Counted from the first letter of the stretch, positions 14,109 to 32,800 are shown. The stretch: 64,000 nt of DNA from an uncultured Holophagales bacterium (GCA_963842525.1 CAWJGT010000009.1:64001-128000); one strand, 5' to 3'. Made by a program: numbers and translations. Notes: generated by a model not told the origin, from the letters alone.

Positions 14109-14109
14109 C

Positions 14110-16356: not shown

Positions 16357-17063
16357 GGCTGAGACCCTCCGAAGAACTTGATGACCGCGGAGGTCGTGGC
16401 CAGGATGATCGCCACGAGGCCGACGGTTTTCGTCAACAACTCAAGGATTGTGGAATACTTCTTCGTGATCTTCTCAAAGATATCTGTTTCCCCGTCTTTC
16501 CGCGGTTTTTTCCCGGAAGGGGAAGACCATCGTTCACGCAAGGAGCCGCCAAGAAGGGCCGCGGTTACAAAGATGAGGGGTTGGCCGAACGCAAAGATCA
16601 AGAGGGCCAGGCCCCATTTGAACGTTGAATCCTCGAAGCTGGTGATCATGAGCCATATCGCAATAAGGTTGAGAAGGCCGAGGGTGACTCCGGAGAGCAG
16701 GTCGGACCGCGGGCTGCGGCGGCTCCAGACCAGGCCGACCAGGAGGCCCAACACGGCGGGAGGGAAGACGATGGCGAGAACCTTCGGCAAGTTGGGGTTG
16801 TCGACCGGCGGAGGCGGGGCGATGGTGATCAACAGATAGCCAGAGGTAAGAATGACGCCGAAGGCAACGGCGACGAACGCGACGAAGGAATAGGAAGGAG
16901 CCTCGGCCAATTTGGGGGCGGGTGCGGCGCTGAACGCCGCGACCTCCTTCTCTAAGGAGATCAGCCGCACCAACAGGGGCTTGACGAGGCTGAAGTCATG
17001 GCCGCAGTGGCGGCAGACGATTGCCTCATCCTTGATCTCTTCGGCGCAATAGGGGCATTTCAT
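16353..17063 (-). CDS. Zinc-ribbon membrane protein
   Basis: MKCPYCAEEIKDEAIVCRHCG followed by several transmembrane segments. Confidence 0.75.
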   Translation of the reverse strand: MKCPYCAEEIKDEAIVCRHCGHDFSLVKPLLVRLISLEKEVAAFSAAPAPKLAEAPSYSFVAFVAVAFGVILTSGYLLITIAPPPPVDNPNLPKVLAIVFPPAVLGLLVGLVWSRRSPRSDLLSGVTLGLLNLIAIWLMITSFEDSTFKWGLALLIFAFGQPLIFVTAALLGGSLRERWSSPSGKKPRKDGETDIFEKITKKYSTILELLTKTVGLVAIILATTSAVIKFFGGSQP

Positions 17064-17176
17064 GGAAACGCCAGGTCCCGCTCACAAGCTTTCGTAATGA
17101 TTCAGTATAGCACGCGAAACGCGTCTCTCGGCCCGGTGCCGAGGAACGCAGGCCGCGAGAGGGGGAAAGGCCGATC

Positions 17177-17980
17177 CTACGCCGGTGGACGTGGCGCGAA
17201 GAGGTCGATCGGCACGCCGGTGCCGGAGCCGAAGTAGGAACGGGAGTTGGCCCTGGGGAGCGCGAAGCCGTTGATCGCGATGCGCCGTGGGGCGCCGCCG
17301 CGGTTTTCGGCGCTTCGGTGGACCACATAGGGGCCGAAGAAGGCGGCGCTTCCCGCTTTCAGCAGCGCAGGGACGCCGGGACGGTCGCAATAGCTGCGCC
17401 GCACCGCGGCGGGATCGAGGTGCCCCTGCTGGCCACTGCGCGGATAGAAGATCAGCGGACCGTTGTCGAGCGTCGAGTCGTCGATCGCGACGACGCTCTG
17501 GATGTAGCTCCCGCGCCCGTCGACATCGTGCCACTCGGGGGTGCCGTAGCGGCGGTGCTCGCTATCCTGATGGGGCTCGAACTCCAGCCCGTCGTTGGGG
17601 TACTTGGCATGGAGCTGGTTGAGCAGGTGGACCGCGCTCTCGGAGCCGAAAAGCTGGCCGACGATCGAGGTGAGCCGCACGTCCCGCCCGCAGTCGAGGA
17701 AGGCCGGCTCGCAACCGCCCGCCCAGACGACCCGTTGCAGCCGGGTCGACCCGTTCGAGCCGCCGAAGACGAACTGGCTCCCCTCGTGCTCGACCTTGCG
17801 CTCGCCCGCCCCGTCGCCGTTCGCGGGGAGCGCCGCAGCCAGCTCTTGCCCGACCGCCCGGAGCCGCTCGGCGGCCGCGGCCATGTCCGCCACCTCCTCG
17901 CGCGAGAAGAGGCCCTCGAGGATGAGGAAACCGTCGTCGTAGAAACGCCGGATGGCGACTGGCGAAATCTGTTGAATCAT
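17177..17980 (-). CDS. Phytanoyl-CoA dioxygenase (PhyH) family 2OG-Fe(II) oxygenase
   Basis: FYDDGFLILEGLFS, PHQD, DDSTLDNGPL, VVHRSAENR; start MIQQIS chosen. Confidence 0.85.
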   Translation of the reverse strand: MIQQISPVAIRRFYDDGFLILEGLFSREEVADMAAAAERLRAVGQELAAALPANGDGAGERKVEHEGSQFVFGGSNGSTRLQRVVWAGGCEPAFLDCGRDVRLTSIVGQLFGSESAVHLLNQLHAKYPNDGLEFEPHQDSEHRRYGTPEWHDVDGRGSYIQSVVAIDDSTLDNGPLIFYPRSGQQGHLDPAAVRRSYCDRPGVPALLKAGSAAFFGPYVVHRSAENRGGAPRRIAINGFALPRANSRSYFGSGTGVPIDLFAPRPPA

Positions 17981-18018
17981 AGAATGGCTATATGGTAACA
18001 CAAGCCGCGCGGGCGTGT

Positions 18019-18540
18019 CTACCGCCGGCGGTAGCGGAACTCGAGGGTGCTCGGCTTGCCGTTCTCCACGCGCTCCAGGAGGGCGATCAAATCCTCGCCC
18101 TGCTTGCGGTAGACGATCCGGATCGGGTTGGCCGGATCGCGGTTGTCGAAGACCGCCTCGCCGGGCCGGGAGGAGACGAGATGGAAGAGGATCGCGCCCT
18201 CCTTGTCCTCCCAGGCGACCAGGCCGGGCTTGAAGTGCCGGAGCTGCAGGACGACGCTCTCTCCGGCCGGCTCCAGGGCGAGGAGCTCGTAGACCACGAC
18301 CTTGCCGTCCTTCTTGATCCAGCGGAACGTGCCGAGCATGGCGCCGCCGGCGGGCGGGCTCCACTGCTCGTCGATGAAGTCTCCTCCGATCTCCCCCTGC
18401 CACGCGCCGGCGATCCAGGAGAAATCGGCCACCTTTGCCGCCGGGGGCCCGGCAGGGGGCGGAGTCTGGGGCTCGGCTGCCAGGACCGGGACAGCGGCGA
18501 ACAGGATCAGGGCGAGCAACGGGATGCAGCGGATCTTCAT
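18019..18540 (-). CDS. Exported protein, DUF6265-like
   Basis: Signal peptide; SWIAGAWQG, EQWSPPAGGAMLG, AVFDN motifs. Confidence 0.7.
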   Translation of the reverse strand: MKIRCIPLLALILFAAVPVLAAEPQTPPPAGPPAAKVADFSWIAGAWQGEIGGDFIDEQWSPPAGGAMLGTFRWIKKDGKVVVYELLALEPAGESVVLQLRHFKPGLVAWEDKEGAILFHLVSSRPGEAVFDNRDPANPIRIVYRKQGEDLIALLERVENGKPSTLEFRYRRR

Positions 18541-18682: not shown

Positions 18683-19282
18683 TCAAGGCCGTGCTGACCA
18701 GGGCGTCACCGTGCCGATGATGAAGCGAGGAACCCTCATCTCTATCGCCGTCATCACGCCTTCGCAGACCTCTCGGTGAGTCAGCCACCGGGAGCCCTCA
18801 GGGCCCTGGACGAATCCGAGGATGACCTCGTGGTACTCGATACGGGGGAACTGTTCGAAGCTCGTGCGCCACCCCCGTTCAGGGCTCGCGGGATCGACGG
18901 CCTGGCTGCTCAGCAGGTGGAAGTACGGGCAGGCTTGGACCGGGGTTGCCACTGCCCCGGCGATGGCGAGAGGTGCCTCCGGGGCGGTGCTGTGGATCCA
19001 GACTACGCATGGCCCGATCGGCCCGAAGCGCTGCCGCGCCTGCAGCAGCGCCTGGAGCAGCCCTCTGGTGTCGCGATAGTCGACCGAGATCGGGTGGATC
19101 CGACAACCCCCACCCGCCCTTGCCTCCTCCTGCAGCGACGAGAGCCTCTCCCGCTTACGCCCCACGACGGAGACCACGTCCGCCCGTAGCGCCAGGGCGA
19201 GAGACACTCCCTTCAACATGCCTGTCCCCCCCACGACCAGAGCATGACTCCCAAGCCGCGGATTTGACTTCATTTCTGCCAT
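18683..19282 (-). CDS. Short Rossmann-fold (SDR-like) protein, divergent from the peptide cluster
   Basis: HALVVGGTGML, VDYRD, VILGFV...SRWLTHREV. Confidence 0.75.
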   Translation of the reverse strand: MAEMKSNPRLGSHALVVGGTGMLKGVSLALALRADVVSVVGRKRERLSSLQEEARAGGGCRIHPISVDYRDTRGLLQALLQARQRFGPIGPCVVWIHSTAPEAPLAIAGAVATPVQACPYFHLLSSQAVDPASPERGWRTSFEQFPRIEYHEVILGFVQGPEGSRWLTHREVCEGVMTAIEMRVPRFIIGTVTPWSARP

Positions 19283-19299: not shown

Positions 19300-19328
19300 T
19301 TGACGAGCTCCAAAGTTTATTATAGAAT
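19300..19328 (+). promoter_or_regulatory. Near-consensus sigma70 promoter TTGACG-17-TAGAAT
   Basis: Hexamers with exact 17-bp spacer in an AT-rich intergenic stretch upstream of the 77-aa peptide. Confidence 0.7.
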
Positions 19329-19416
19329 ACTCTTGCAGCCTGTTGAGTATAGCCAATTGGGGAAATCTTTATCTCCGGGCATGGTGCCCGGATGACGCGC
19401 TCGGAAAGGAGCCCAT

Positions 19417-19650
19417 ATGGCTGCCCAAAAGAACCAGTACCAGACCGGGACGGCTCGGCGCCCTCGCTTCTGCGTTGTGGCCGAGAGGTCGCTTGCCGTC
19501 TTCAACGAACGTTCGGAGGATGAGATCGTGCGAGCCCAGGCGCAGTTCAGCGACGACATGGTCAGCGCGCTGGAGTCGATGGTCAAGGCGGCTCGGGCCG
19601 GCCAGCTCGAGGGCCGGGCGGCGCTCGCGCTGGAGGCCGTTGCCTGGTAA
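19417..19650 (+). CDS. 77-aa candidate precursor/scaffold peptide ending ...AALALEAVAW
   Basis: GAAAGGAG RBS; first gene of a co-directional enzyme cluster; only Trp is the C-terminal residue. Confidence 0.7.
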   Translation: MAAQKNQYQTGTARRPRFCVVAERSLAVFNERSEDEIVRAQAQFSDDMVSALESMVKAARAGQLEGRAALALEAVAW

Positions 19651-19672
19651 GTGGACGTCCTGAGCTCTGAAA

Positions 19673-19705
19673 CCGGCCTGCCAGGCGGGCCCTGGCGGGC
19701 CGGCT
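19673..19705 (+). other. GC-rich stem-loop after the peptide gene (possible transcript stabiliser/attenuator)
   Basis: ccggcctgccagg...ctggcgggccgg inverted repeat, no U-tract. Confidence 0.5.
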
Positions 19706-19714
19706 TGCACGAAA

Positions 19715-21553
19715 ATGGCTTACTCACTCGAACGACAACCTCTTCTTCAGCCGCGATCGGCTCCGGCGCAGCGCATGTGGCGCGTGGGCAGCCGGCCTTG
19801 CGCGCAGGGCCTTGAGCCCTGCGATCTTCGGCTTGCCGTCCGTCCGGACAACCTTGAGACATTCGCCTCTCTCAGGGCGATCTTGGACCAGTTGGCAGGG
19901 TTCGCGCGGCCGGAGCAGCGGCGGCAGCTCGACAAGCTGGAAGACTATCTTCGCGAGGCCTGTCCAGGACCTTCCAGCGACCAGGCTGGCAGCCACGGAC
20001 GGCTGCTCACGGATTCCGTAACTTTCGCGATCATGCGCCGGATCAGCCGGGAGAGCTTCTATACGGCCCGCGTGATCGATCTCAGCGCGAGGTTGATGAA
20101 CGAGATCCTCGGCCGGATCCCTGGCTGCACGCGGGTGCATGTCGAGGATGTGGACCGACTCGACCGGCCGACCCTCAAGGCGCTGGCCCGGGCGGTCCTC
20201 TTGGTGGAACAGAAGCATGGCTTCTCCTGGGTATGGCATTCGATGAGCGATCCGCTCGCCTCTCCGGCAGGGAGCGGCGAAGGCCTCTTCCTCGCTTCCC
20301 GGAAGCAGCTCCTCCGGCAGCTTGCCGAAATCCTCTCGCCGACGCTCTGCCGCGAAGCGGAACCGATACCCCTGAGCGTCGGACACGGCTGCAGCCCGGC
20401 TGCCATCGATCAGGTCAGCGCGGCGCTCGTCCTGCAGAACTACGATGCCTGCTTCCTCTGGCTCGAGCCCCTTCTGCAGAGCTGTGGCGGCCCCGAGCTG
20501 GCGGAGGGCCTGCGCCTCCTCTCGCTCGCCACGGTTAACATCGGCCGCATCCGGGAGGCTCTGGAACAGCTCAGCCTTGCCGAGGAGAAGACGGACCGGG
20601 GTGGGCGCCGGGCTCACCTCTGCTACCTCCAAGGCCTGATCGAGGCAAAGAGGGGCTACGACCTCGCCGCCAGCACGAGCCACTACCAGCGGGGCCTTGC
20701 CGCGCTCGGGCAAGGAGGAGCAGGAGAGGACCTCCCCCTGGAGCAAGGGTGGCTGCTCAACGGCCTGGCCCTCAACGAGGCGATCCTGTGGCGCCGGAAT
20801 GCGGCCGCGGTCGACCACTTCCACCGAGCGTTCTCACTCGAACGCGACGCCTTCGGCCTGGTGGCCGAAGGGAAGGACCCTGCGAGGACATACCTTCGCT
20901 TCAACCTCCTGGCCAATACGACCTTCCTCCTGGAGATCCAGGGCAACTATCCGCTCGCGATCGACACCTTCAAAAAGGTGTTCGAGCTCGAGTTGGAGGA
21001 TGCTTCGGAGAAAAGGGAACGCTGGCGCAGCACTGTCGGTTACCGGATCGGCGTCCTTCATTTTCGGGCTGGAGCCCTGGAGGAAGCACACCGGTGCCTG
21101 TGCGATGCCGCAGAGCAGGACTCCTACACGGAGAGCTGGGCGACCCAAGAGCGCATTCTGCGCGCCCGCGGTCTCGTCGAGCTCGATCTGGGTTCTCCCG
21201 AGCAGGCTGCCGGTACGTTCTCTCAGGGGCTGCAGATCTGCCGGGAGGCGCGCTCTGCCGAGGGGGCACGCGAGCACGGGCGTGGGCTGCTGGCCACACT
21301 GCTTGCGAACGGCAAAATGCGAGAGGCGCGGGACCTGGCGGGATGCCTCGCTTCTGAAGAGGGGGTAGACCTCGTCTCGGAGGGGGAGCTCGACCGCGCG
21401 CGAACCGGCGCGGCCCTGCGGCCGCGCCCTCCCTCGCCCAAGCTGCCTGCTTATTTTCCGGAAATCGACCTCGAAGGGATACCGTGCACCGATCTCAACC
21501 GGTTTCTTGGGAAGGCGCAGGATCGGGACCAGGTGGTCCCTTGGCGGGATTAG
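19715..21553 (+). CDS. 612-aa TPR-like protein of unknown function; candidate peptide-modifying enzyme
   Basis: Central helical repeats plus non-TPR blocks (RRISRES, DVDRLDRPT, QNYD, NGLALNE, YLRFNLLAN, PKLPAYFPEIDL). Confidence 0.7.
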   Translation: MAYSLERQPLLQPRSAPAQRMWRVGSRPCAQGLEPCDLRLAVRPDNLETFASLRAILDQLAGFARPEQRRQLDKLEDYLREACPGPSSDQAGSHGRLLTDSVTFAIMRRISRESFYTARVIDLSARLMNEILGRIPGCTRVHVEDVDRLDRPTLKALARAVLLVEQKHGFSWVWHSMSDPLASPAGSGEGLFLASRKQLLRQLAEILSPTLCREAEPIPLSVGHGCSPAAIDQVSAALVLQNYDACFLWLEPLLQSCGGPELAEGLRLLSLATVNIGRIREALEQLSLAEEKTDRGGRRAHLCYLQGLIEAKRGYDLAASTSHYQRGLAALGQGGAGEDLPLEQGWLLNGLALNEAILWRRNAAAVDHFHRAFSLERDAFGLVAEGKDPARTYLRFNLLANTTFLLEIQGNYPLAIDTFKKVFELELEDASEKRERWRSTVGYRIGVLHFRAGALEEAHRCLCDAAEQDSYTESWATQERILRARGLVELDLGSPEQAAGTFSQGLQICREARSAEGAREHGRGLLATLLANGKMREARDLAGCLASEEGVDLVSEGELDRARTGAALRPRPPSPKLPAYFPEIDLEGIPCTDLNRFLGKAQDRDQVVPWRD

Positions 21554-22489
21554 ATGGAGACCGTGCTCTTGCTCGGTGCCGGCCATGTCGGCACTTTTTC
21601 CGCCCGCGCCGTCGCGGAGCAGGGCGCCCGGGTGGTCGCGGCCGACGTGCAGCCGGCCCCTGGATTCTTCTCACGTTTTGGGCCCAGGGAAGCGGCCGAT
21701 CTGATCGCCATTGACATCCTCGATCCGGGCGCGGTGGAACGCCTGATCAGAGCTCGTAGAGTGGATCGCGTCATCCTGGCGGCCGGCCCTACGCGCGAGG
21801 CGAGCGCGCGCGATCCCGAAAGGGTATGGCGGATCCATATCGAAGGCGCCCTCGCCGTCGGACGGGCTGCCCGCGCCACGGGTGTCCGACGCCTCGTTTA
21901 TGTCAGCAGCTTTGCGGTTTACGGCCGGCCGGAAGCCGATCGCATCGACGAGACGATGCCGGCTCGGCCCCGATCTGACTACGGTCGGGCCAAGGTGGCC
22001 GCGGAGGATGTGCTGATCCGGTTTCGTGACCAGGGGTTGGACGTCCGGATCCTACGTCCCTGCGGCCTCTACGGACCTCATCGTCCGGGAGCGGGGAGCC
22101 AGTCGGCCAAGGTGATCGACGATCTGCTCACGCACTCTCTGAGGGGTGAGAGGATGATGATCCAAGAACAGGCATTCGCGGACGAATTCCTCTATGTGAA
22201 AGACCTGGGTCGTGCCATTGCGCTTGCGACGCTCGGCGAGCCCCGTTCTGAGGACTGCGTCTTCAATGTCGGTCCCGGCCAGACGACGAGCGCGGCAGAG
22301 TTGTGCCGGGCCATGCGCCGCGCCGTGCCCGCGGCGCAGCTCGTCCTTCACGAAAGCGGGAACGCAAAACGCTTACCCTGCGCGCCGCTGCGGATCGAAC
22401 GCATCCGCGCCGCTCTCGGCTTCGAGCCGAGCTACAGCCTCTCCCGAGGGCTGTGCGATTACCTCCACGAGACCGGGCTGCGGCCATGA
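21554..22489 (+). CDS. NAD-dependent epimerase/dehydratase (extended SDR)
   Basis: GAGHVG, YVSSFAVYG, YGRAK, LYVKDL, FNVG. Confidence 0.9.
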   Translation: METVLLLGAGHVGTFSARAVAEQGARVVAADVQPAPGFFSRFGPREAADLIAIDILDPGAVERLIRARRVDRVILAAGPTREASARDPERVWRIHIEGALAVGRAARATGVRRLVYVSSFAVYGRPEADRIDETMPARPRSDYGRAKVAAEDVLIRFRDQGLDVRILRPCGLYGPHRPGAGSQSAKVIDDLLTHSLRGERMMIQEQAFADEFLYVKDLGRAIALATLGEPRSEDCVFNVGPGQTTSAAELCRAMRRAVPAAQLVLHESGNAKRLPCAPLRIERIRAALGFEPSYSLSRGLCDYLHETGLRP

Positions 22490-23136
22490 CGGCGCTTTCC
22501 GAGCCGCTCGGCAGGCTCGCCGTGAGCCGGATCGAGGATGTCAGGCCGGCGACCGTGCTGGGCATCTGCGCGAGCCTGAAACCGGCACCGGGACGTCAGG
22601 GGCGGTCCGCGGTGCGCTCGCTCCTTACCTTTGCGCTCGACCACCTGGCCAACGTCTACCCCGAGGTGGCCCTCCTCGACCTGCGGGACCACCCGCCGCC
22701 TTCCTTCGACGGGAGGATGCCCCACGACTACGACGATCCGGTGTTGCAGCTCCTCTGGCCGTGCGTGGACCGGGCAGGAGCGTTGCTGCTCGCCGTCCCC
22801 GCCTACTGGTCGGGGGTCTCCGGAGTCTTCAAGAACTTCGTCGACGTCCTTTGCGGCCCGGCGTATGACCTCGAGTGCCCAAGCGTTACCGTCTTCTCCA
22901 ACAAGCCGGTCGGCCTTCTGGTCGTCGGCGCAGAGGAGGCCAGCACTCGTGCCGGCGCGGACCAGGCCCGGATGACCCTCCTCGCAACGGGAGCCCGGCT
23001 GGTGGGGCAGCCGGTCCTTGTCGCCGATCCACGCTCCCGTCCAATGCAGATCGAGCTCGTCTCCCGCGAGCTCGCAGCGCTCGCCGGAGAGCTCGCCCAG
23101 CACGCCTATGGCCAGGTCGTCCGGGAGGGTCCGTGA
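22486..23136 (+). CDS. NAD(P)H-dependent FMN reductase (flavodoxin-like)
   Basis: GICASL, LLDLRD, PAYWSGVSGVFKNFVD, NKPVGL; ATGA overlap with upstream gene. Confidence 0.85.
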   Translation: MTALSEPLGRLAVSRIEDVRPATVLGICASLKPAPGRQGRSAVRSLLTFALDHLANVYPEVALLDLRDHPPPSFDGRMPHDYDDPVLQLLWPCVDRAGALLLAVPAYWSGVSGVFKNFVDVLCGPAYDLECPSVTVFSNKPVGLLVVGAEEASTRAGADQARMTLLATGARLVGQPVLVADPRSRPMQIELVSRELAALAGELAQHAYGQVVREGP

Positions 23137-24252
23137 GTCACATTCCCGGCCGGGCGACTGCGGAGGGCACGAGGCGCTTCACCCGCCGGTTTTCTCGGGT
23201 GGCCCCGGAGTTCTTCCGCCTCACCGGGGACCTGACCGTTTCATCGGTGGGGCTGGGTACGTTTCCGGGACGGGCCGACGAAAGTACCGACGCAGGATAT
23301 GCGGCTGCGATCGAGCGGGCGCTGGAGTTGGGATGCAATGTGATCGACACCTCTGTGGCCTATCGCCACCAGCGCAGCGAACGTGTGATCGGGAAGACGC
23401 TGGCACGGCTCATCGGCTGCGGGAAACAGGACCGCGATTCAATGGTGGTCGCTTCGAAGGCCGGTTTCATCCCCTTCGACAGCGAATATCCTGGAAGCCC
23501 CGGGCAGTACTTCGAGGAGACTTTCATACGCACCGGCATCGTCGACCCGGCGGAAGTGGTCGGCCGAGGGCACTGCCTGGCTCCTGGATTCCTGCGGCAT
23601 CAGATCGCGACGAGCCGGCGGAACCTGTGCTGCGCAACGGTCGACATCTACTTTCTCCATAATCCAGAAACACAGCTCCGCGAAGTGGACAGGCTGGGAT
23701 TCCGAACCCGGCTCCTGACCGCTTTCGAAACCCTGGAGCGCGCAGTCGCCGACGGGAGCATCGGCATGTACGGGGTGTCGACCTGGAGCGGCTTTCGTTC
23801 TCTTCCGGAGTCTGGAGACTATCTGCCCCTGTGTGACCTCGTCCGCTGGGCGGCCGAGGTCGGCGGCCCGGATCACCATTTCCGGGTGATCATGGTGCCT
23901 TTCAATCTGGCCATGCCAGAGGCGTTCGCCCTTTCGAACCAGCGGCCCTCCAGGGAGCTCCCCCTGGACCTCCCTGCTTCGGGCGGCGGCCGATCTCGGG
24001 ATCACCGTGCTGGCTGGCGCCTCGCTGCACCAAGCCCGCCTCACTTGCGGCCTGCCCGCGGAGGTCCATGCCACGGTCGGAGGGGAGCTGCCCAGCAACG
24101 CGCAACGGGCCCTGCAATTCGTACGCTCGGCGCCGGGGCTCACGACTGCTCTCGTCGGAATGAGCCGCACCGAGCACGTCGAGGAGAACCTGGCTCTCGC
24201 TGCGGTCCCTCCGCTGTCCGACGGCTGCTTCGACGAGCTCTTCGATCCCTGA
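23133..24252 (+). CDS. Aldo/keto reductase with a frameshift near 23960
   Basis: SSVGLGT, NVIDTSVAYRHQRSE, DIYFLHNPE; C-terminus (ALQFVRSAPG..ALVGMS..HVEEN) in the next frame. Confidence 0.85.
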
Positions 24253-24277
24253 GGATTTCGATTCCGGAGGTGCTGAC

Positions 24278-25369
24278 ATGACAGAGACGACGACCCAAGC
24301 GCAACCGCGGACCTTCCCGGGTGGGGTGGATCCGTCCGTCCTGCTGAAAGGAGGAGAGGCTCAGGCGTTGCTGGCGAGACACTCCGAAGCGGCGCACAGT
24401 TTCCGGCAGGCCATCGCCAGCGCGGAGGAGGCTCTGCGGGCGGACCCGGAGGACACGGCCGCGCGATGGGCGCAGGCCCGGGCGCTGCTCTGCCTCGGCC
24501 GGCTGCAGAGCGCTCTGACCCAGCGCGACGAAGCGAGGTCCACGTTCAGGCAGGCGATCGGCGTGCATGAAGAGGTTCTTCGCCGGATCCCCGGCGAGAC
24601 CGTTTCGCGCCACGAGCAGATCTTCATGCTGCTCAGCCTGGGCCGGCTCCATGCCGGGATCGGAGAGCCTGAAACGGCAGCCGCTTACTACCAGCGGGCC
24701 GGCGTTCTAGGATGCGACGCGCTGCGGGCAAGCCCTGATGACGAAGGAGCCCGCGGTCACATGGCGAGCACGTTCGCAAGCCTCGGTCGACTGCAGGCGA
24801 AGCTCTCCCAGCCCGGGCAAGCGTCGCAGAGCTATCGCGCGGCCCTCCTTCACTTCGACGAGCTTTTGCGGCGCGCGCCCGAGAATCCGAAAGTGCACTC
24901 CGGACGGGCGAGCACGTGGTTGAGCCTGGGCCGCCTGCAGGCCTCTCTGGCCGAGAAGGACGAGGCGGTCGAGTCCTTTCAGGCCGCTGTCTCCGCATAT
25001 GACGAGGTTTTGCGGCGCGCTCCCGGAGACGTGTCGGCCCTGGTCAACCGGGGGAACGCCCTCGCCCGGCTGGCGGAGATGCAGGCCGAGCTTTCGCGGC
25101 CTGATCAGGCGGAGGAGAGCTGCAAGCGGTCGATCTCCTCATCCGACCTCGCCCTGCAACGAGCACCGGCTTCCGCGGACGCCCACAGCAACAAGGGCAG
25201 TGCGCTGTTAAGCCTCGGCCGTCTGCAGAGCGGCTGGGGAGACAGCGAGGCGGCCGTCAGCACTTTCCGAATGGCTCTCGAGGAATTCGAGCGGTCCCTC
25301 GAGATCGCTCCCGACAATGACGAGGTCCGCAGCCTCCAGGAACGCCTCCGGGCCATCCTGGAGTGGTGA
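24278..25369 (+). CDS. Tetratricopeptide repeat protein
   Basis: Multiple SLGRLQ...A...F..A....DE.LRRAP repeats; GGAGG RBS. Confidence 0.85.
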   Translation: MTETTTQAQPRTFPGGVDPSVLLKGGEAQALLARHSEAAHSFRQAIASAEEALRADPEDTAARWAQARALLCLGRLQSALTQRDEARSTFRQAIGVHEEVLRRIPGETVSRHEQIFMLLSLGRLHAGIGEPETAAAYYQRAGVLGCDALRASPDDEGARGHMASTFASLGRLQAKLSQPGQASQSYRAALLHFDELLRRAPENPKVHSGRASTWLSLGRLQASLAEKDEAVESFQAAVSAYDEVLRRAPGDVSALVNRGNALARLAEMQAELSRPDQAEESCKRSISSSDLALQRAPASADAHSNKGSALLSLGRLQSGWGDSEAAVSTFRMALEEFERSLEIAPDNDEVRSLQERLRAILEW

Positions 25370-25395
25370 GCTGAGCCCGCCACGCCGGAGGTGCC

Positions 25396-26055
25396 GTGAA
25401 CAAGACCGACTTCGTGCGGCAAGAGGGCTACCTGTCTCCCGCCGTGCAGCAGCTTCTCTTTTCTCTACCCAGGCGCTGCGAGTTCCTGGTCACCCATGCG
25501 GGCCCGCCTGCGAAGCGCATTCTCGACGTGGGCTGCGCCGGCGGGCATATCGCACTCCTGCTGATGAGACTGGGCCACGATGTAACGGGGATCGAGCTGA
25601 ACGCCGAGATGGCCGCGGAGGCCCGCGCCCGCGGCGTCCAGGTCCTGGAACACGACCTGGAGGAGCCGCTGCCGTTGCCGGACGCGTCCATCGAGGTGGT
25701 CCACGCCTGCGAAATTATCGAGCACCTGTTCGACACGGAAGGATTCCTGAAGGAGTTGCATCGCGTTCTGGCGCCCGATGGTGTCCTGATCCTCAGCACA
25801 CCGAACCTCAACAGCCTGAGGAACCGATTCCGCGTCCTGTTCGGGCTGCACCTGCCCATGTGGGGTGCCTTCCCGGAGGACCGGCACGGCTGTCATGTGC
25901 GGGTGCTCAACCGCACCAAGGTCGCCCATCTGCTCGCGCGGACGGGTTTCCGCCTCGAGCTCGTCCTGGGCATGAACCAGTCGCGGTGGCGCTATCTGCT
26001 GGATCACTTTCCGACCTGGAGCGAGATGCTTCTGATCAAGGCACGGAGGGCCTGA
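25396..26055 (+). CDS. Class I SAM-dependent methyltransferase
   Basis: ILDVGCAGG, EIIEHL, GVLILSTPN. Confidence 0.9.
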   Translation: MNKTDFVRQEGYLSPAVQQLLFSLPRRCEFLVTHAGPPAKRILDVGCAGGHIALLLMRLGHDVTGIELNAEMAAEARARGVQVLEHDLEEPLPLPDASIEVVHACEIIEHLFDTEGFLKELHRVLAPDGVLILSTPNLNSLRNRFRVLFGLHLPMWGAFPEDRHGCHVRVLNRTKVAHLLARTGFRLELVLGMNQSRWRYLLDHFPTWSEMLLIKARRA

Positions 26056-26060
26056 TCGCG

Positions 26061-26777
26061 ATGACCGCCCCGAGGATCGGCTCACCTGCATGGGAAGAGC
26101 CACCAACCTACGAGGACATCGTCGATGTAGTCATCGGATTCCTCCGGCAGAAGAAAGCGCTGCCCGGCCAGGGGCCACAGACTCCCTGGGACGCCTTCCT
26201 GCGGCTCTCCGACCGGGTCCATGAGACCTACGAGGTCCCTGCGACGACGCTCACCCCCGTGATGCGGCGCCTCCTCTTCGCCTTGGGCTTCGCCGCCCGC
26301 CCGCGATGCCTCGCCGGAATCGGCGTCTACGTTGGATACGCTTGGTCCTGGCTGCTCCGGGACCGCACCGATCTTGCAGCGTCCCCCTTCTTCGAGAGTG
26401 CCGTGGGGGTTGACCTGGATGCCGATGCGGTCTGTTTGGCGGCGCGGAACTGTGCCGTGCTCGGGCATGGCGATCGTCTGCGTTTCCTGAAATCCGACGG
26501 AGTCCGTGCGCTCCGCCACTGGGACGGGGAGGTCGACCTCCTCTATCTGGACATCGACGACGAGCAGAAAGGCAAATCCGGCTATCGTGACGTCGTCTCT
26601 GCTGCTTTACCGTTCATGCGCTCCGGTGCGCTCGTCCTGGCTCATGACCCTTGTGTTCCGCGCTTTCAGGAGGATTTCAAAATCTATCATGATTTCGTAC
26701 GGACCTCGGGGCGCTTCGAGGGCCTGTGGGTGCTTCCGGTCGACCCGTGCGGCCTGTCCGTCGCTCTGGCGCGCTGA
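26061..26777 (+). CDS. Class I SAM-dependent methyltransferase-like protein (O-methyltransferase type)
   Basis: GIGVYVGY, GVDLD, DLLYLD, GALVLAHD; start MTAPRIG chosen. Confidence 0.7.
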   Translation: MTAPRIGSPAWEEPPTYEDIVDVVIGFLRQKKALPGQGPQTPWDAFLRLSDRVHETYEVPATTLTPVMRRLLFALGFAARPRCLAGIGVYVGYAWSWLLRDRTDLAASPFFESAVGVDLDADAVCLAARNCAVLGHGDRLRFLKSDGVRALRHWDGEVDLLYLDIDDEQKGKSGYRDVVSAALPFMRSGALVLAHDPCVPRFQEDFKIYHDFVRTSGRFEGLWVLPVDPCGLSVALAR

Positions 26778-26780
26778 GGC

Positions 26781-27825
26781 ATGGAACCTATCGCCGATCT
26801 GGGCCTGGGTCACCTCCGGATCCGCGGGCCGGAGGACATGGAAAGGCCGGCGATCAGCGCGGGCTATGGTCCGGCTGAGGGCCTCCGGGAAGCTCCGCGA
26901 GGCGATCGCGGCATGGGAAGGGGTCTCGGTCGAGGAGGTCTGCGTCACAACGGGAGCCTCCCTCGGTCTCGTGGCAGCCTTGACCGGACTGCCTCGTCCC
27001 TGCTCCGTTCTGTGCCCCCGTCCCTATTATCCTGCGTATCCTTCACTGGCCGAGTTGCTCGGTCTGAAAACCCTGTTCTATGACCTGGAGCCGGAGCTCG
27101 GATGGCAGCCCGATCCGCTGGCCCTCGCGCGCCTTCTGCGTGAAGACTCGCGGGCCCTGCTGTGGAATTTCCCGAGCAATCCAACCGGAACGATCCCGGA
27201 CCCCGCAGTTCTCGCCAAGGTGCGGGAGCTCGTGCAAGAGGCCAACCTGCTGGTGCTCAGCGACGAGGTCTATGCTGATTTCATCTATGACGGCCATGCC
27301 TTTCCGGACATGCGGGCAGCCCTCGGGCACTCTCACGCGATCCGGCTGCGGAGCTTTTCCAAGCTCTTCAGGATGGCGGGGGAGCGTTTGGGTTACGTGA
27401 TCGGCGATCCTGATCGCTTGCGCGGTATCCGCCGCAATCACTGGCTGCTGGCGATGTCGCCGCCCGCAGCGGCACAGGCCCTGGCCCTCGCGGGAATGCG
27501 CCTCGATCTGTCCCGGCAGACCGGGGAGCTGCGCAGAGAGCTCTCCGTTTTGCGCGATCTGGCAGCACGCATTCTGGATGGCTGTGGCAGAGTCCGCTTT
27601 TCCAGGCCGCCGGCCGGCATCTTCTACTGGATCGAGGTCCTGGGTTGCCCGATCGATTCTCGGGCCCTCGTCCGGCTCTGCGCGGAGGAGGCCGGGGTGC
27701 TCGTCCAACCGGGAGCGGTTTTCGGCATCGGAGAGCCTGTCTACCTGCGGGCGTCGTTCGCCGTGGAGCGGGACGAGATGGGCCGCGGTTTCGAGTCACT
27801 GGTGAATCTGTTGGAGCGCCTGTGA
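26781..27825 (+). CDS. PLP-dependent class I/II aminotransferase family enzyme with a frameshift near 26890
   Basis: GYGPAEGLRE / LREAIA, NFPSNPTG, SDEVY, SFSKLFRMAGERLGY, YLRASF. Confidence 0.88.
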
Positions 27826-27875
27826 GCCGGCGTGCGCGGCCACCATAGAGGATCTGACATATAGGAGGCCGAGAG

Positions 27876-28451
27876 ATGCGTGGACCTGTGCAGATTCTAT
27901 TGATCAGTGGCAGCCTCCGACAGATATCGTACACTCGCGTGCTCGCAAACGAGGCCCAGACGGCTCTGGACCGGCGGGGTGTGAGGACGATCCACTGGAG
28001 CTTGAGCGAGACGGCGCTTCCGATTGCCGATCCGGCCTTCCACGACGATCCGGCGAGTCACCCCGACAGAGCCGTCCGCAGCCTCGTGACCGCCGCGGAC
28101 GAAAGCGATGCGTTCATCCTCGCCTCTCCGATCTACCACAACTCATACTCAGGCGTGCTCAAGAACGCACTGGATCACCTTGCTATTGCACAATTCCGCT
28201 ACAAGCCTGTGGGATTGATGAGCCATGGCGGAAACCGTAGCCCTCAGGCGGTAGATCACCTGCGGATCGTGGTCCGTGGGCTCCTGGGGGTCGCGACTCC
28301 GACACAGGTCTGTACAGCGGCTTCCGACTTTCAGATGGCCTCCGAAGGGTATGCGCTCCAATCCGAAGACATCTTGCAGAGAATCGAACGCTTCGCCCTG
28401 GAGCTGGTCGTCTTCGCAGAGGCCTTCCGCGACCTCCGCAGAGCCGGCTGA
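27876..28451 (+). CDS. NADPH-dependent FMN reductase (second copy)
   Basis: ISGSLRQISYT, SPIYHNSYSGVLKNALD, YKPVGL. Confidence 0.9.
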   Translation: MRGPVQILLISGSLRQISYTRVLANEAQTALDRRGVRTIHWSLSETALPIADPAFHDDPASHPDRAVRSLVTAADESDAFILASPIYHNSYSGVLKNALDHLAIAQFRYKPVGLMSHGGNRSPQAVDHLRIVVRGLLGVATPTQVCTAASDFQMASEGYALQSEDILQRIERFALELVVFAEAFRDLRRAG

Positions 28452-28715: not shown

Positions 28716-29606
28716 ATGGGCAAGAGGATCTTCCTCTTTCTGTTGACCAACCTGGCTGTCGTGGTGGTGCTCTCGACGATCCTGAGCCTGCTCGGGGTGG
28801 GGAGCTACATCGGTGCCGACGGCAGCCTCCAGCTCGTGCCGCTGGCGATTTTCTGTTTCGTCTGGGGCATGGGCGGCGCCTTCATCTCCCTGCAGTTGTC
28901 GCGCTGGATCGCCAAGCGGGCCATGGGCATTCAGCTCGTGAACGGCCAGATGGGGCATGCCGAGCTCGACTGGCTCCACACCACGGTGGCGAACCTGGCG
29001 CGGCAGGCGAACCTGCCGATGCCGGAGGTCGGCTATTACGAGTCGGCGGAGGTCAACGCCTTCGCGACCGGTCCCAGCAAGAAGCGCAGCCTGGTGGCGG
29101 TGTCGACCGGGCTGCTGGGGAACATGACCCACCCGGAGGTCGAAGCGGTGCTGGCGCATGAGGTCGGCCACATCGCCAACGGCGACATGGTCACGATGAC
29201 GCTCCTCCAGGGGGTCATCAACGCCTTCGTCCTCTTCTTCGCGCGGGTCGCGGCCTTCGCGGTGCGTCTGGCCGTCCCCGAGAAGCTCGCCTGGATCGCC
29301 GGCTTCGTCACCATGATCGTGCTGCAGATCGTGCTGGGCATCCTCGGCTCGCTGGTGACCGCCTGGTACTCGCGCCAGCGGGAGTTCCGGGCCGACGTCG
29401 CGGGCGCCACCCTGGGCAGCCGGGACGGCATGATCTCGGCCCTGCGCCGGCTGATGACCACGACCGAGCGGATCGACACCTCGAACGCCGCCCTGGCCAC
29501 GATGAAGATCGCAGGCAAGAAGAGCTGGCTCCACGCCTTCTCCACCCACCCGCCGCTCGAAGAGCGCATCGCCGCCCTCGAAACCGGCCGGTACCAGGCT
29601 CGCTGA
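28716..29606 (+). CDS. htpX: Zinc metalloprotease HtpX (M48)
   Basis: NAFATG, LAHEVGHIANGDMVTMTL, SRQREFRAD, FSTHPPLEERI. Confidence 0.95.
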   Translation: MGKRIFLFLLTNLAVVVVLSTILSLLGVGSYIGADGSLQLVPLAIFCFVWGMGGAFISLQLSRWIAKRAMGIQLVNGQMGHAELDWLHTTVANLARQANLPMPEVGYYESAEVNAFATGPSKKRSLVAVSTGLLGNMTHPEVEAVLAHEVGHIANGDMVTMTLLQGVINAFVLFFARVAAFAVRLAVPEKLAWIAGFVTMIVLQIVLGILGSLVTAWYSRQREFRADVAGATLGSRDGMISALRRLMTTTERIDTSNAALATMKIAGKKSWLHAFSTHPPLEERIAALETGRYQAR

Positions 29607-29876: not shown

Positions 29877-32800
29877 TCACCGCCAATCGTGGCTCGGCAC
29901 CGCCGCCACTCTCTTCAGGGACCAGAACCTCTCCCCCTTGACCGAGATCGTGCCGTCCCGCTTCTGGAGGGTGCCTTCGACGACGAGGCCGGGGGAGCCG
30001 ACGATCAGCTTGCGGTGTTTCTGGAGGAGGTCGGGAGAGACGACGGCCTGCGACATGCCGGTCTCGTCTTCCAGAGTGATGAAGAGGAGGCCCTTGGCGG
30101 TGCCGGGACGCTGCCTCACGATCACCGAGCCGGCGGTGCGGACGCGCTGGCCGTCCCGCAGCTTGTCGAGGCCGGCGGCGGTGGTGACTCCCTTCTCCTG
30201 GAGCTGGTCGCGGAAATAGACAAGGGGGTGCGGGCCCAGGGTGAGCTGGATGCCCGCGTAGTCGGCCTGGGTCTCTTCGACCGCGGTCATCTCCGGGAGC
30301 GGTGAGGGCTCCGGGTCTTCCAGATGGTCGAGGAGCGGCCCGGCGGGACGGGCGCTCCGCGCCACCTGCCAGAGGGCGGCGCGGCGGGTCAGGCCGAAGG
30401 AGGCGAGGGCCCCGATCTCGGCCAGGGTGGCGATCTCGTTGGAGTTGAGACGGCAGCGTTCAATCAGGTCGTCCACGCTCTGGAAAGACTGGCGCTTTCT
30501 CTCTTGCTCGATGGTCTTTCCCATCTTGTCGCGCAGGCCGCGTACGAAACGGAAGCCGAGGCAGAGGGCCCCCACCGGCGGCACCTCGCCGGTCCGCCGG
30601 TCCCGCTCGCCTTCACGGATGTCCCGGTCCTCCCAATGGCAGCGGTATCCCGAGACCTGGACGTCCACCGGCCGGATCTCGACGCCGCGGCGCTGCGCAT
30701 CCTTGACCAGGGTGGCCGGATGGTAGAAGCCCATGGGCCAGGCATTCAGGAGCCCCAGGAAGAAGGCCGTGGGATGGTGGGCCTTCAGGTAGGCGCTGGC
30801 ATAGGCGATCAGGGCGAAGCTCGCGGCGTGCGACTCCGGGAAGCCGTAGAGGGCGAAGGAGGTGATGGACTGGACGATCTCGTCCTGCGCCTTGCCCACG
30901 ATCCCCTTTTCGCTCATCCCCCGGCGGAGCTTCTCCACGATCGCGTTCATCCGCTCCACCGATCGTTTGGAGCCCATGGCCCGCCGCAGCTCCTCGGCCT
31001 CGCCGCCGGTGAAGCCGGCTGCCACCATGGCCACCCGCAGGAGCTGCTCCTGGAAGATCGGCACGCCCAGGGTGCGCTTGAGGATCGGTTCCAGGCTCGG
31101 GTGCGCGTAGATCACCGGCTGGCGGCCGTTGCGCCGTTCGAAGTAGGGGCTCGCCATCTTGCCCGCGATCGGACCGGGCCGGATGATCCCTACCTGGATC
31201 ACCAGGTCGTAGAACTTTTCCGGATGGTTGCGCGGCAGCGACGCCATCTGCGCCCGGCTCTCCACCTGGAAGACGCCCACGGTGTCCGCCGCCCGCAGCA
31301 TCCGGTAGACCTTGGGATCGTCCGGCGGCAAGTGAGAGAGGTCGACGTTCACGTTTTCGTGCAGGCGGATGGTCGGCACCATCTCCTCCAGGGCGTTGAG
31401 CATCCCCAGACCCAGGAGGTCGACCTTGATGATGCCCAGGTCGGCGCAGTCGTCTTTATCCCACTGGACGACGACCCGGCCGGGCATGGAGGCGGGCTCC
31501 AGGGGGACGACCTCGTCCAGGCGGCCGGCGGCGATGACCATGCCCCCGGAGTGCTGGCCGAGATGGCGGGGGAGGTTGTGGATGCGCACCCACTGGTCGC
31601 GGAAGAGCTGGATGCGCGGCTCCTCGGGATCGAAGCCGGCGGCGGTCATCTCGTTGTCGAACGACTTCGGATCGCCGCTCGCCACGTCGTAGGTCCAGCT
31701 CCCGAGCTGCTTGGCGAGCCGGTCCACCTGCTCGGGGGAGTAGCCGAAGACCTTGGCCACCTCGCGCGTGGACGACTTGTCGCGATACGTGATGACGTTG
31801 GCAGTCATGGCCGCGCCGCGCGGGCCGTAGCGCTGGTAGACGTACTGGATGACTTTTTCGCGCTGCGTGCCCGATGGCAGGTCGAGATCGATGTCCGGCC
31901 ACTCGCCGCGCTCTTCGGAAAGAAACCTTTCGAAGAGCAGCTCCATCTTGACCGGGTCGACCGCGGTGATCGAGAGGGCATAGCAGACCGCGCTGTTGGC
32001 CGCCGAGCCGCGTCCCTGGGCGAGGATGTTCTCGCGCTGGCAGAACTGGACGATGTCCCAGACGATCAGGAAATAGCCCGCCAGCTCGAGCTTCTCGATC
32101 AGGTCGAGCTCCCGCTGGATCTGCGCCTGCGCCTTGGCGGTCAGCGGCCGGAAACGCGCCTTGGCGCCGTTCCAGGTGATGTGCCGCAGGTAGGAGGACG
32201 GGGTCTCGCCCGGAGGGAGCGGGTAGTCGGGGAAGCGGTAGCCGAGGTTCGCCAGGGTGAAGTCGAGCCGCTCGGACAGCTCGGCCGTGGCGGCCAGCGC
32301 CTCCGGCAGGTCGGCGAAGAGCCGGGCCATCTCGGCCGCGCCCTTCAAGTGCCGCTCGCGGTGCGCCGCGAGGAGGGCCCCGGCCGCATCCAGGGTCGTG
32401 TGGTGCCGGATCGAGGTGAGGACGTCGTGGAGCGGCTTGTCCTCGGCCCGGGCATAGCGCACGCCGTTGGTGGCCACGATGGGCAGGCGCAGCCGGGCCG
32501 CCAGGTCGAGAAGCGCGCGGTTCCGGTGCTCCTCCTCGCGCAGCCGGTGGCGCTGGAGCTCGATATGGATGCGGCCGTGGAAAAGGACGGTCAGCCGCTC
32601 GATCGCCCGCCGTGCCGCATCGATCCCGCCATGAGCGAGCTCGCGGGCCACGAGCCCCTCATCGCTGCCGGTGAGGCACCAGAGCCCGGCCGCATGCTCG
32701 GCCAGCAAGTCCCAGGAGACCCGGGCCTCGCCCTTGGGCCGGCCGAGCGCCGCCGTGGTCAGCATCCGGCACAGGTTGCGATACCCGGCCGCGCTCTCGA

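Follow-up and report, generated by a model that had tools for sequence, protein, structure and literature searches.

Can a tryptophan borne by a peptide be turned into a quinone by a gene cluster that has no peptide aminoacyl-tRNA ligase (PEARL)? So far, conversion of a peptide-borne Trp to a hydroxyquinone has been documented only in the PEARL-containing pearlin clusters, of which two systems have been studied. The question is raised by a locus in a 64,000-nt stretch of DNA from an uncultured Holophagales bacterium (GCA_963842525.1, CAWJGT010000009.1:64001-128000), which is here called the window and is numbered from its first nucleotide. At positions 19300 to 28451, a gene for a 77-aa peptide is followed by nine genes, the first of which codes for a 612-aa protein with tetratricopeptide repeats (TPRs). 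A preliminary description, made from the window alone, had taken this protein for an orphan that oxidizes a ribosomally encoded Ala-Trp terminus independently of PEARLs. We report that the peptide, the 612-aa protein and five further enzymes form a conserved module that recurs in distant bacteria with no PEARL nearby. We consider it likely that they constitute a PEARL-independent relative, in the style of ribosomally synthesized peptides that undergo post-translational modification (RiPPs), of the tryptophan-quinone pathway of the pearlins (ammosamide/bha). The earlier proposal is supported in part, by the Trp-ended neighbours and the absence of a PEARL, but the orphan status and the conserved Ala had to be given up.

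The Trp-terminated peptide

The putative precursor or scaffold gene (19417..19650, plus strand) was delimited by reading of the open reading frame (ORF) and by alignment of relatives. The encoded peptide ends in ...LALEAVAW, and its sole Trp is the final residue, just as described previously. The gene is present in a single copy in the genome of the window, and the peptide matched no Pfam or NCBIfam family. The near-consensus promoter and the ribosome-binding site described in front of it were both found again: a sigma-70-like promoter (TTGACG-17-TAGAAT; 19300..19328, plus strand) with 10 of 12 matches, and a Shine-Dalgarno sequence AAGGAG (19406..19411, plus strand) located 5 nt upstream of the ATG at 19417. 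Two promoter-like sites were found in 10.9 kb as compared to 0.8 expected; the second one is on the minus strand (19346-19319) and faces a divergent gene, up199, which is treated below.

When one genome per species was scanned, homologues of the 612-aa protein turned up at 12 distinct loci, and at all 12 a short same-strand ORF ending in Trp lies directly upstream of the homologue. The same holds for 11 of 13 metagenome loci from a sister clade, so that the survey of homologue neighbourhoods, on which the earlier proposal had been made to depend, speaks in its favour. As a control for chance, 24 of the 836 window ORFs of at least 40 codons end in Trp. Most of the related loci carry a GGAGG or AAGGAG site before the start codon of the peptide, which then has 36-80 residues, and the ends encountered among relatives are AVAW, AIKW, AIRW, AAPW, AAAW, SISW, and AATW. 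The final Trp is invariant in alignment A4, which comprises the 11 peptides that could be delimited (22-69% identity to the peptide from the window). Of the Ala-Trp terminus, it is thus the Trp that is conserved but not the Ala, the preceding residue being A, K, R, P, S, T, V, N, I or L across the loci. As is characteristic of RiPP loci, a short precursor gene with its own ribosome-binding site is kept together with genes for tailoring enzymes.

The stem-loop described downstream of the peptide gene exists as a perfect 13-bp G+C-rich hairpin (19673..19703, plus strand), located before the gene for the 612-aa protein. However, it has no U-tail, a search of Rfam gave no match, and its stability (minimum free energy of -32.3 kcal/mol over a 76-nt stretch) does not exceed that of shuffled sequences (z -0.93). 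Stems of at least 10 contiguous bp occur 3' of the peptide stop codon in 9 of the 18 loci examined, a count made without a shuffle control.

The 612-aa TPR protein

According to profile, alignment, and fold model, the 612-aa protein (19715..21553, plus strand) is a candidate tryptophan hydroxylase of the BhaC1/AmmC1 type, dependent on flavin mononucleotide (FMN). In published accounts, BhaC1 and AmmC1 are FMN enzymes that contain TPRs, lack a canonical flavin site, and trihydroxylate the C-terminal Trp of a scaffold peptide (PMC9850906). The scaffold, an acidic helical peptide of 41 aa, is accommodated in a cleft and its C-terminus in a tunnel (PMC9850906; bioRxiv 10.1101/2024.03.12.584671). 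The Trp is held by Lys391/Lys654 and Asn472 in BhaC1 and by Lys350/Lys602 and Asn432 in AmmC1, the Lys residues binding the carboxylate and the Asn the indole NH (PMC9850906).

The 612-aa protein is encoded once in its genome, and it is by no means an orphan. A word-index search returned 59 homologues with 32-65% identity, and a profile search against 1.84 billion representatives returned 3355 at E<=1e-3, of which 384 reached <=1e-10 and 169 reached <=1e-30. The family thus comprises at least 169 clusters, when these are defined at 50% identity and counted at E<=1e-30. NCBIfam has no model for it, and Pfam gave sub-threshold matches to TPR_1 and TPR_12 but no flavin family. Three parts can be distinguished: an N-terminal domain (residues ~15-216), a solenoid of TPRs (~227-551), and a C-terminal tail in which the pattern KLPAYxPEIDLEGIPxxDLNRFL is conserved. 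In 42 diverse members, which span 22-64% identity, R108, R109, R112, E113, D150, L308, K312, R313, E343, W346, N349, Y393, L394, N397, N401, K576, D585, E587, P590, and N595 are invariant. The N-terminal domain contains an invariant RRxSRES helix together with D150 and R151. K312 and K576 are 264 residues apart, and the corresponding spacing is 263 in 8 of 8 members of the Bacillota clade.

The AlphaFold2 model computed from alignment A1 has a mean predicted local distance difference test (pLDDT) of 85.8 and a predicted template modelling score (pTM) of 0.88. Residues 227-551 are modelled as a TPR solenoid, which resembles the TPR domain of LGN (4wng_A; Z 20.1, root-mean-square deviation [rmsd] 3.2, 312 aligned residues). 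For the whole protein, the PDB sequence search and Foldseek returned TPR proteins only. The N-terminal 240 residues (19715-20434) were also folded alone (pLDDT 79.1). Foldseek found nothing for this domain at E<=1e-3, and the best 50 VIA matches are all P-loop proteins of the AAA+ or STAND (signal transduction ATPases with numerous domains) type, with Z scores from 8.7 to 5.8. They include the nucleotide-binding domain of MalT (8bob_D; Z 8.7, rmsd 3.7, 140 aligned residues) and a STAND-TPR protein (6mfv_A; Z 7.5); the latter also aligns to residues 15-572 of the full model (Z 11.8, rmsd 8.4, 424 aligned residues). Because the Walker A motif GxxxxGK[ST] is absent from residues 1-240, the domain would be a degenerate STAND/AAA+ relative at most. 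Judged from the model, its degenerate nucleotide site may be a reasonable candidate for the unrecognized FMN site, and a STAND-like domain would be a first clue to the origin of flavoenzymes without a recognizable flavin site. Co-folding of the enzyme (A1) with the peptide (A4) and FMN, run without controls, gave scores of 0.04 and 0.12 as compared to a mark of 0.32, which speaks neither for nor against the complex.

Taken by analogy, the 612-aa protein fits the published description of BhaC1 (BAB05752.1, Bacillus halodurans) and AmmC1 (WP_051437089.1, Streptomyces sp. CNR-698), a comparison which was made by that description only, and it appears as a candidate Trp oxygenase. We hold it to be very likely that it is directly homologous to these enzymes.

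Companion enzymes and the seven-gene core

The nine genes downstream of the peptide gene are coupled by overlaps or by gaps of at most 50 nt. Pfam agrees with the families assigned to them before and, again as described, gives no monooxygenase domain in any gene of the cluster. Homologues of five of the companion genes were found by tblastn in 12 of 12 genome loci. Because the peptide and six enzymes recur at all of these loci, the core of the cluster consists of seven genes.

The peptide gene and the nine genes that follow it are on the plus strand. The first core companion of the 612-aa protein is an extended short-chain dehydrogenase/reductase (SDR) of the NAD-dependent epimerase/dehydratase family (21554..22489; PF01370 at 1.5e-36). 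It has the GxGxxG and YxxxK motifs, and the solved structures closest to it are those of UDP-glucose 4-epimerases and of L-threonine 3-dehydrogenases. It is followed by FMN_red 1 (22486..23136), a divergent protein of 216 aa assigned to PF03358 (1.2e-16; 61.0 bits, cut-off 24), with weak PDB matches to YhdA and AzoR. The last gene codes for FMN_red 2 (27876..28451), of the NADPH:quinone/azo-reductase type, which matches the same family better (2.2e-29; 102.5 bits); nearest to it are the FMN-dependent NADPH-quinone reductase AzoR (7f76) and YhdA. That both are flavin reductases had been recognized correctly, and they have a known counterpart: the bha and amm clusters encode the FMN quinone reductases BhaH and Amm17, along with further TPR proteins and a methyltransferase (PMC11117183). 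The remaining core enzymes are a Methyltransf_24 methyltransferase (26058..26777; PF13578 at 4.2e-8), for which the PDB sequence search gave no match, and a class I/II aminotransferase dependent on pyridoxal phosphate (PLP) (26781..27825; PF00155, Aminotran_1_2, at 4.8e-44). The latter has the Lys motif SFSK, its nearest solved relatives are similar to aspartate aminotransferase, and its best NCBIfam match is GntC-like (178.6 bits, below the cut-off of 415 bits).

Three genes are accessory. The aldo/keto reductase (AKR; 23133..24252), which is frameshifted in the assembly, covers positions 4-142 of the 291 in the Aldo_ket_red profile. An all-TPR protein of 363 aa (24278..25369) matches many TPR families of Pfam. 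Among the 12 loci, these two genes are found in L006 only. MT1 (25396..26055), assigned by Pfam to the class I S-adenosylmethionine (SAM) methyltransferases (Methyltransf_23/11), occurs at 3 of the 12 loci (L003, L006, and L007) and also in L026.

Absence of a PEARL

PEARLs are described as truncated lantibiotic dehydratases belonging to PF04738 (bioRxiv 10.1101/2025.09.03.674030). No PEARL had been recognized in the cluster before, and this was confirmed: PF04738 is not among the cluster genes, and its nearest occurrence in the genome is more than 1.4 Mb away (the matches are on another contig, at C3:1.39 Mb, and on the contig of the cluster, at C9:1.526 Mb, with the cluster itself at about C9:83-92 kb). 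The family is also absent from four of five other host genomes (Solirubrobacter, an Actinomycetales metagenome-assembled genome [MAG], Sphingomonas, and Cysteiniphilum; G041-G044), while the fifth, a Thermoanaerobaculia MAG (G045), has one ordinary LanB on another contig. Loci from the sister clade contain no large ORF with a Lant_dehydr_N domain. Altogether, 27 related loci were inspected (12 from genomes, 13 from metagenomes, and 2 from plasmids), and not one has a PEARL neighbour. A 907-aa ORF with a Lant_dehydr_N domain (C9:1526001-1527944) is on the same contig as the cluster, at a distance of 1.44 Mb.

Distribution, sister clade, and plasmids

The 12 genome loci are from MAGs of Pyrinomonadaceae, Blastocatellia, and Thermoanaerobaculia, from Solirubrobacter taibaiensis, an Actinomycetales MAG, Mesorhizobium, Sphingomonas psychrotolerans, two Planctomycetota MAGs, and Cysteiniphilum. 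They represent five phyla (Acidobacteriota, Actinomycetota, Alpha- and Gammaproteobacteria, and Planctomycetota). Homologues of the 612-aa protein were detected in none of 40 relatives and, with three candidates scored per genome, in none of 400 other genomes of the phylum to which the window belongs and none of 400 other Actinomycetota genomes. In the ESM Atlas, the matches were TPR clusters from Actinomycetota and Bacillota with lengths of 610-777 aa, which we treat as a lead only.

The sister clade was defined by alignment A3 of members with about 30% identity to the 612-aa protein, and 13 metagenome loci were retrieved. One of these, L032, proved to be of the window type (clade 1). The upstream ORF, present at 11 of the 13 loci (8 distinct sequences), codes for a strongly acidic peptide of 37-38 aa ending in ...DEVETAxRAxxW; no Trp-ended upstream ORF was found in the 1.7 kb searched at L027. 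The long contigs (L021, L026, L027, and L029) have orthologues of all six enzymes in different gene orders, and FMN_red 1 directly follows the gene for the TPR enzyme in L026, L027, and L029. TldD/PmbA genes come after the enzyme gene in L023/L024 and in L031, an M16 peptidase is found in L026, and exporters are encoded in L021 (ABC-2) and L027 (major facilitator superfamily, MFS).

Members of the family were also detected by tblastn on five Rhizobium plasmid records, with five obtained for each of the queries (the window protein, P0226, and P0095). The conjugative plasmid of R. leguminosarum Vaf10 (NZ_CP016290.1, 91504-111069; L040) carries the seven-gene module, as does L041; both are large Rhizobium plasmids. 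On the Vaf10 plasmid, the products are annotated as hypothetical protein (75 aa), hypothetical protein (629 aa), NAD(P)-dependent oxidoreductase, NAD(P)H-dependent oxidoreductase, class I methyltransferase, PLP aminotransferase, and NADPH-dependent FMN reductase. The patchy presence across five phyla and on plasmids points to horizontal spread of the cluster. In L040, a gene for a pyruvoyl-type histidine decarboxylase precedes the module, and IS66 and IS6 transposase genes follow it. Two of the further plasmid records have half-length copies of the enzyme gene (52% coverage).

Proposed pathway

From the gene set, its conservation, and the fold model we infer the following chemistry. The 77-aa peptide would be translated with the substrate Trp already at its C-terminus. 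The 612-aa enzyme, in the proposed scheme a flavoprotein of the BhaC1/AmmC1 type built on a degenerate STAND nucleoside triphosphatase (NTPase) domain, would bind the helical peptide and thread its C-terminus into a pocket, in whose lining the invariant residues K312/K576 would serve the carboxylate and N397/N401 the indole NH. The indole would then be hydroxylated with reduced FMN to a hydroxy-hydroquinone or quinone. Reduced flavin is most likely supplied by FMN_red 1, the constant neighbour of the TPR enzyme in the sister clade, whereas FMN_red 2 would be an NADPH:quinone reductase of the BhaH/Amm17 kind that sets the quinone/hydroquinone state for later steps. The Methyltransf_24 enzyme may methylate a ring hydroxyl or amine, and the SDR may perform a further redox step. 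Our guess for the PLP aminotransferase is that it transaminates the quinone or a keto tautomer, which would replace the amination via PEARL and Gly-tRNA; alternatively, it might act on the released amino acid. Since there is no PEARL to reload Trp, the peptide would be consumed once per product, like a classical precursor.

Several observations weigh against this pathway or against the relationship on which it is built. Neither BhaC1 or AmmC1 by name, nor any protein from B. halodurans or Streptomyces sp. CNR-698, was among the word-index matches (queries included P0085 and P0226), and there is no PEARL neighbour that would tie the 612-aa family to the characterized enzymes. The PDB has no entry for BhaC1 or AmmC1. 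Across the family, the Lys-Lys spacing ranges from 227 to 285, with 263 found in 12 of 186 members and 252 in 4 of 186, and the Lys-Asn distance is 85-89, as compared to 81-82 in the published enzymes; because of this range and this difference, the agreement in Lys spacing is only circumstantial. At 70-80 aa, the clade-1 peptide has about double the length of BhaA, and on balance it is not acidic. BhaC1 reportedly needs a small residue before the Trp (PMC9850906), a position which is varied in the present family. It is also reported to be active only on a C-terminal Trp (PMC9850906), and yet five residues follow the Trp at three loci, L032 and two Rhizobium plasmids (L040 8380-8607; L041 ~8400-8650; L032 ~9380-9606, by sequence reading). 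In the peptides from R. leguminosarum Vaf10 and R. lusitanum, ...GAVAW is followed by AGASV or AGAAV, and in that from L032, ...GALAW by AVVDV. The extension is kept between species and is therefore probably functional. As Trp is not the last encoded residue in this subgroup, either trimming or a less demanding enzyme would be needed. Furthermore, the clade-1 core lacks a protease and an exporter, as well as an immunity gene, at 12 of 12 loci. Finally, the AKR and, among the core genes, the aminotransferase are frameshifted in the genome of the window.

Alternative explanations

The last point leads to the alternative that has the best standing, which is that, irrespective of the family's role in other hosts, the cluster in this particular genome is a partly decayed copy that yields either a truncated product or no final product at all. 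Near a C5 run at ~23960, the reading frame of the AKR gene changes, as seen from its orthologue in L006, which aligns in two frames. The N-terminal ~38 codons of the aminotransferase are in another frame, with the shift at ~26895 in an imperfect 10-nt tandem duplication (TCCGGGAAGC/TCCGCGAGGC), and a 10-nt insertion is atypical of a homopolymer sequencing error. However, an in-frame ATG (MVRLRASGKLREA...) could give rise to an N-terminally shortened aminotransferase, the AKR is only accessory, and the other eight genes, the peptide, promoter, and ribosome-binding site are intact. A LanB-like gene elsewhere in the genome (C3:1392860-1394854) is likewise split over several frames, which hints at indel errors in the assembly. 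We regard decay of this copy as unlikely, albeit as a possibility to be taken seriously.

Somewhat less probable in our view is that the Trp chemistry takes place as proposed, but that the modified peptide, or a short fragment of it, carries a quinone derived from Trp and serves as a redox cofactor or electron shuttle comparable to pyrroloquinoline quinone (PQQ) or mycofactocin. PQQ (from PqqA) and mycofactocin (from MftA) are encoded by compact operons which combine a small peptide with redox enzymes and are not known to include an exporter. On this reading, the two NAD(P)H:quinone reductases, which are always present, and the SDR would be working redox partners and not merely biosynthetic enzymes. 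The absence of protease, exporter, and immunity genes from the clade-1 core would find an explanation, and so would a peptide that is kept along its full length across phyla (40-69% identity), unlike typical leader peptides. The compact operon beside insertion sequence (IS) elements on Rhizobium plasmids also looks like a portable metabolic module. However, in the sister clade the same enzymes are accompanied by peptidases (TldD/PmbA or M16) and by ATP-binding cassette (ABC) or MFS exporters, which point to a released and exported product. There is no conserved candidate nearby for a cofactor-dependent enzyme, and the patchy distribution (0 of 40 relatives, 0 of 400 genomes of the phylum) fits an accessory metabolite better than a cofactor. 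A more specific version, to which we assign a slightly lower probability still, sees in a peptide-bound, Trp-derived (amino/methoxy)quinone a third class of peptide-derived cofactors beside PQQ and mycofactocin, matured by a STAND-derived flavoenzyme with a dead nucleotide site that holds FMN.

We consider it improbable that the indole is left untouched and that the C-terminus is remodelled in a daptide-like way, by oxidative decarboxylation, PLP-dependent transamination, and methylation. Oxidoreductases, an aminotransferase, and methyltransferases do belong to the conserved set, and MT1 partially matches the daptide methyltransferase model NF041820 (E 6e-8). However, this match has 32.4 bits against a cut-off of 175 and is confined to the SAM-binding loop (residues 39-79), MT1 occurs at 3 of 12 loci only, and no daptide family is among the best 25 matches of the aminotransferase. 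The invariant residue is Trp, while that of daptides is reportedly Thr. Such remodelling would also leave the large TPR enzyme with its Lys/Asn pocket and the two proteins of the quinone-reductase type without a role. Membership in the daptide clusters was rejected on account of the sub-cut-off match and the invariant Trp.

That the 612-aa protein is a non-enzymatic peptide receptor or scaffold of the STAND/RRNPP kind, with unrelated metabolism encoded downstream, is very improbable: although the NTPase-like domain followed by TPRs recalls MalT and STAND-TPR proteins (8bob_D, 6mfv_A), and although Foldseek and VIA also list the peptide-binding TPR receptors Rap, NprR, and AimR, Pfam shows no domain for DNA binding or output, a Walker A motif is absent, twenty polar or charged residues are invariant across members with 22-64% identity, the same six genes are strictly linked in two deeply diverged clades while their order changes, and BhaC1/AmmC1 are, according to the published accounts, TPR proteins that are enzymes.

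Neighbouring genes

The G+C content of the cluster (0.645-0.672) is the same as that of its flanks. Divergently from the peptide gene, up199 (18683..19282, minus strand) codes for a 199-aa protein that may be an NAD(P)-binding Rossmann protein, as suggested by a weak N-terminal match to adh_short (E 0.0017, below the cut-off). It is a frequent accessory gene, with homologues beside the cluster at 5 of the 12 genome loci (L003, L006, L007, L010, and L012) and, by tblastn, also in L032, L040, and L041. Further upstream, a minus-strand block (11902-18403) codes for a DUF11/CARDB repeat protein (720 aa), an outer-membrane transporter of the FadL/TodX type, a TPR protein, a zinc-ribbon protein, and a PhyH-family dioxygenase (408 aa); none of these genes is kept together with the cluster. 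An M48 peptidase gene (28716..29606, plus strand; PF01435 at 1.2e-38) lies directly 3' of the operon, but its membership in the cluster is doubtful. As tblastn revealed no homologues of the flanking genes for the M48 peptidase, PhyH dioxygenase, zinc-ribbon, and TPR proteins in 25 related loci, they were rejected as parts of the core. The gene for DnaE (DNA polymerase III alpha; 29877-33410, minus strand) marks the end of the cluster. Between 38001 and 40000, the G+C content falls to 0.524, as compared to a window average of about 0.66, and this region may be a foreign insert.

Relation to published work

The enzyme class, the scaffold peptides, the quinone reductases, and the TldD/E proteases are already known. 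An encoded terminal Trp is not new in itself either, since the AmmA gene encodes one, and AmmB2 adds Trp again (review, PMC9505594). In Figures S3 and S8 of PMC9850906, homologues of BhaA and of BhaC1 "from diverse phyla" are aligned, and Trp-ended peptides and enzymes of the present kind may already be among them. A literature search, with supplements outside its reach, yielded three papers by van der Donk on BhaC1/AmmC1 as well as reviews, and it returned neither a PEARL-free seven-gene module, or its fixed set with PLP aminotransferase and SDR, nor an account of two deep clades or of a spread over five phyla and plasmids.

What the present data add is the enzyme-peptide pair with five fixed enzymes as a compact PEARL-free module, which is patchily distributed over at least five phyla and occurs on Rhizobium plasmids. 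As this module is found across phyla, the Trp-quinone chemistry is probably older and more widespread than the tRNA-dependent add-ons. The module points to a further family of Trp-derived products, or possibly a cofactor, and suggests a PLP-dependent alternative to tRNA-borne nitrogen donors. Enzymes that convert a C-terminal Trp to a quinone are sought for bioconjugation, and the 612-aa family would offer many variants with looser sequence needs beside the Trp. Cultured, tractable carriers are R. leguminosarum Vaf10, S. psychrotolerans Cra20, and S. taibaiensis KCTC 29222.

Comparison with known systems

The module shares with PQQ and mycofactocin biosynthesis the compact operon of a small peptide and redox enzymes, and quinone-type chemistry would likewise be expected, with an aromatic residue at the C-terminus or close to it as its site. 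It differs in that the target residue is Trp and in that Pfam finds neither radical-SAM proteins nor the PqqB/C/D/E or MftB-F families among the ten genes. With STAND-TPR proteins (MalT, 6mfv), the 612-aa protein has in common a P-loop-like alpha/beta domain and a TPR solenoid in the same order. Unlike STAND NTPases, it has neither a Walker A motif nor an effector or DNA-binding domain, while the RRxSRES helix and the C-terminal KLPAY...DLNRFL tail are specific to its family.

The pearlin clusters (ammosamide amm, bha, lymphostin), with which a Trp-derived aminoquinone is assembled on a scaffold peptide that can be used again, differ from the module by their PEARL. With no PF04738 protein in the cluster, neither reloading of Trp nor tRNA-borne nitrogen donors are to be expected, and neither a glycine oxidase nor a halogenase was identified by Pfam in the ten genes. 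Instead, the core includes a PLP aminotransferase and an extended SDR. The operon in the window has no TldD/PmbA gene according to Pfam, and the M48 peptidase beside it lacks conservation; in the sister clade, however, peptidases of the TldD/E type are found, as are Amm12/13 in the amm cluster (bioRxiv 10.1101/2025.09.03.674030). What the systems share is a peptide-borne C-terminal Trp as a building block and, by inference for the present cluster, its oxidation to a quinone with the participation of quinone reductases.

The BhaC1/AmmC1 systems are closest. Differences from them are the lack of a nearby PEARL, a residue before the Trp that is not limited to small ones, the length of the clade-1 peptide and its lack of acidity, and the five residues which follow the Trp at three loci. 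On the other hand, the 612-aa protein resembles BhaC1 and AmmC1 in its size (~600-700 aa), its TPR domain, and the absence of a canonical flavin-binding domain. In both cases, FMN quinone reductases, a methyltransferase, and further TPR proteins are encoded in the cluster. The partner gene codes for a short helical peptide that ends in Trp. The conserved Lys pair of the 612-aa protein, with a spacing of 264 as compared to 263 in BhaC1 and 252 in AmmC1, and its conserved Asn may correspond to the residues that hold the Trp in the published models, a match that is circumstantial for the reasons given above.

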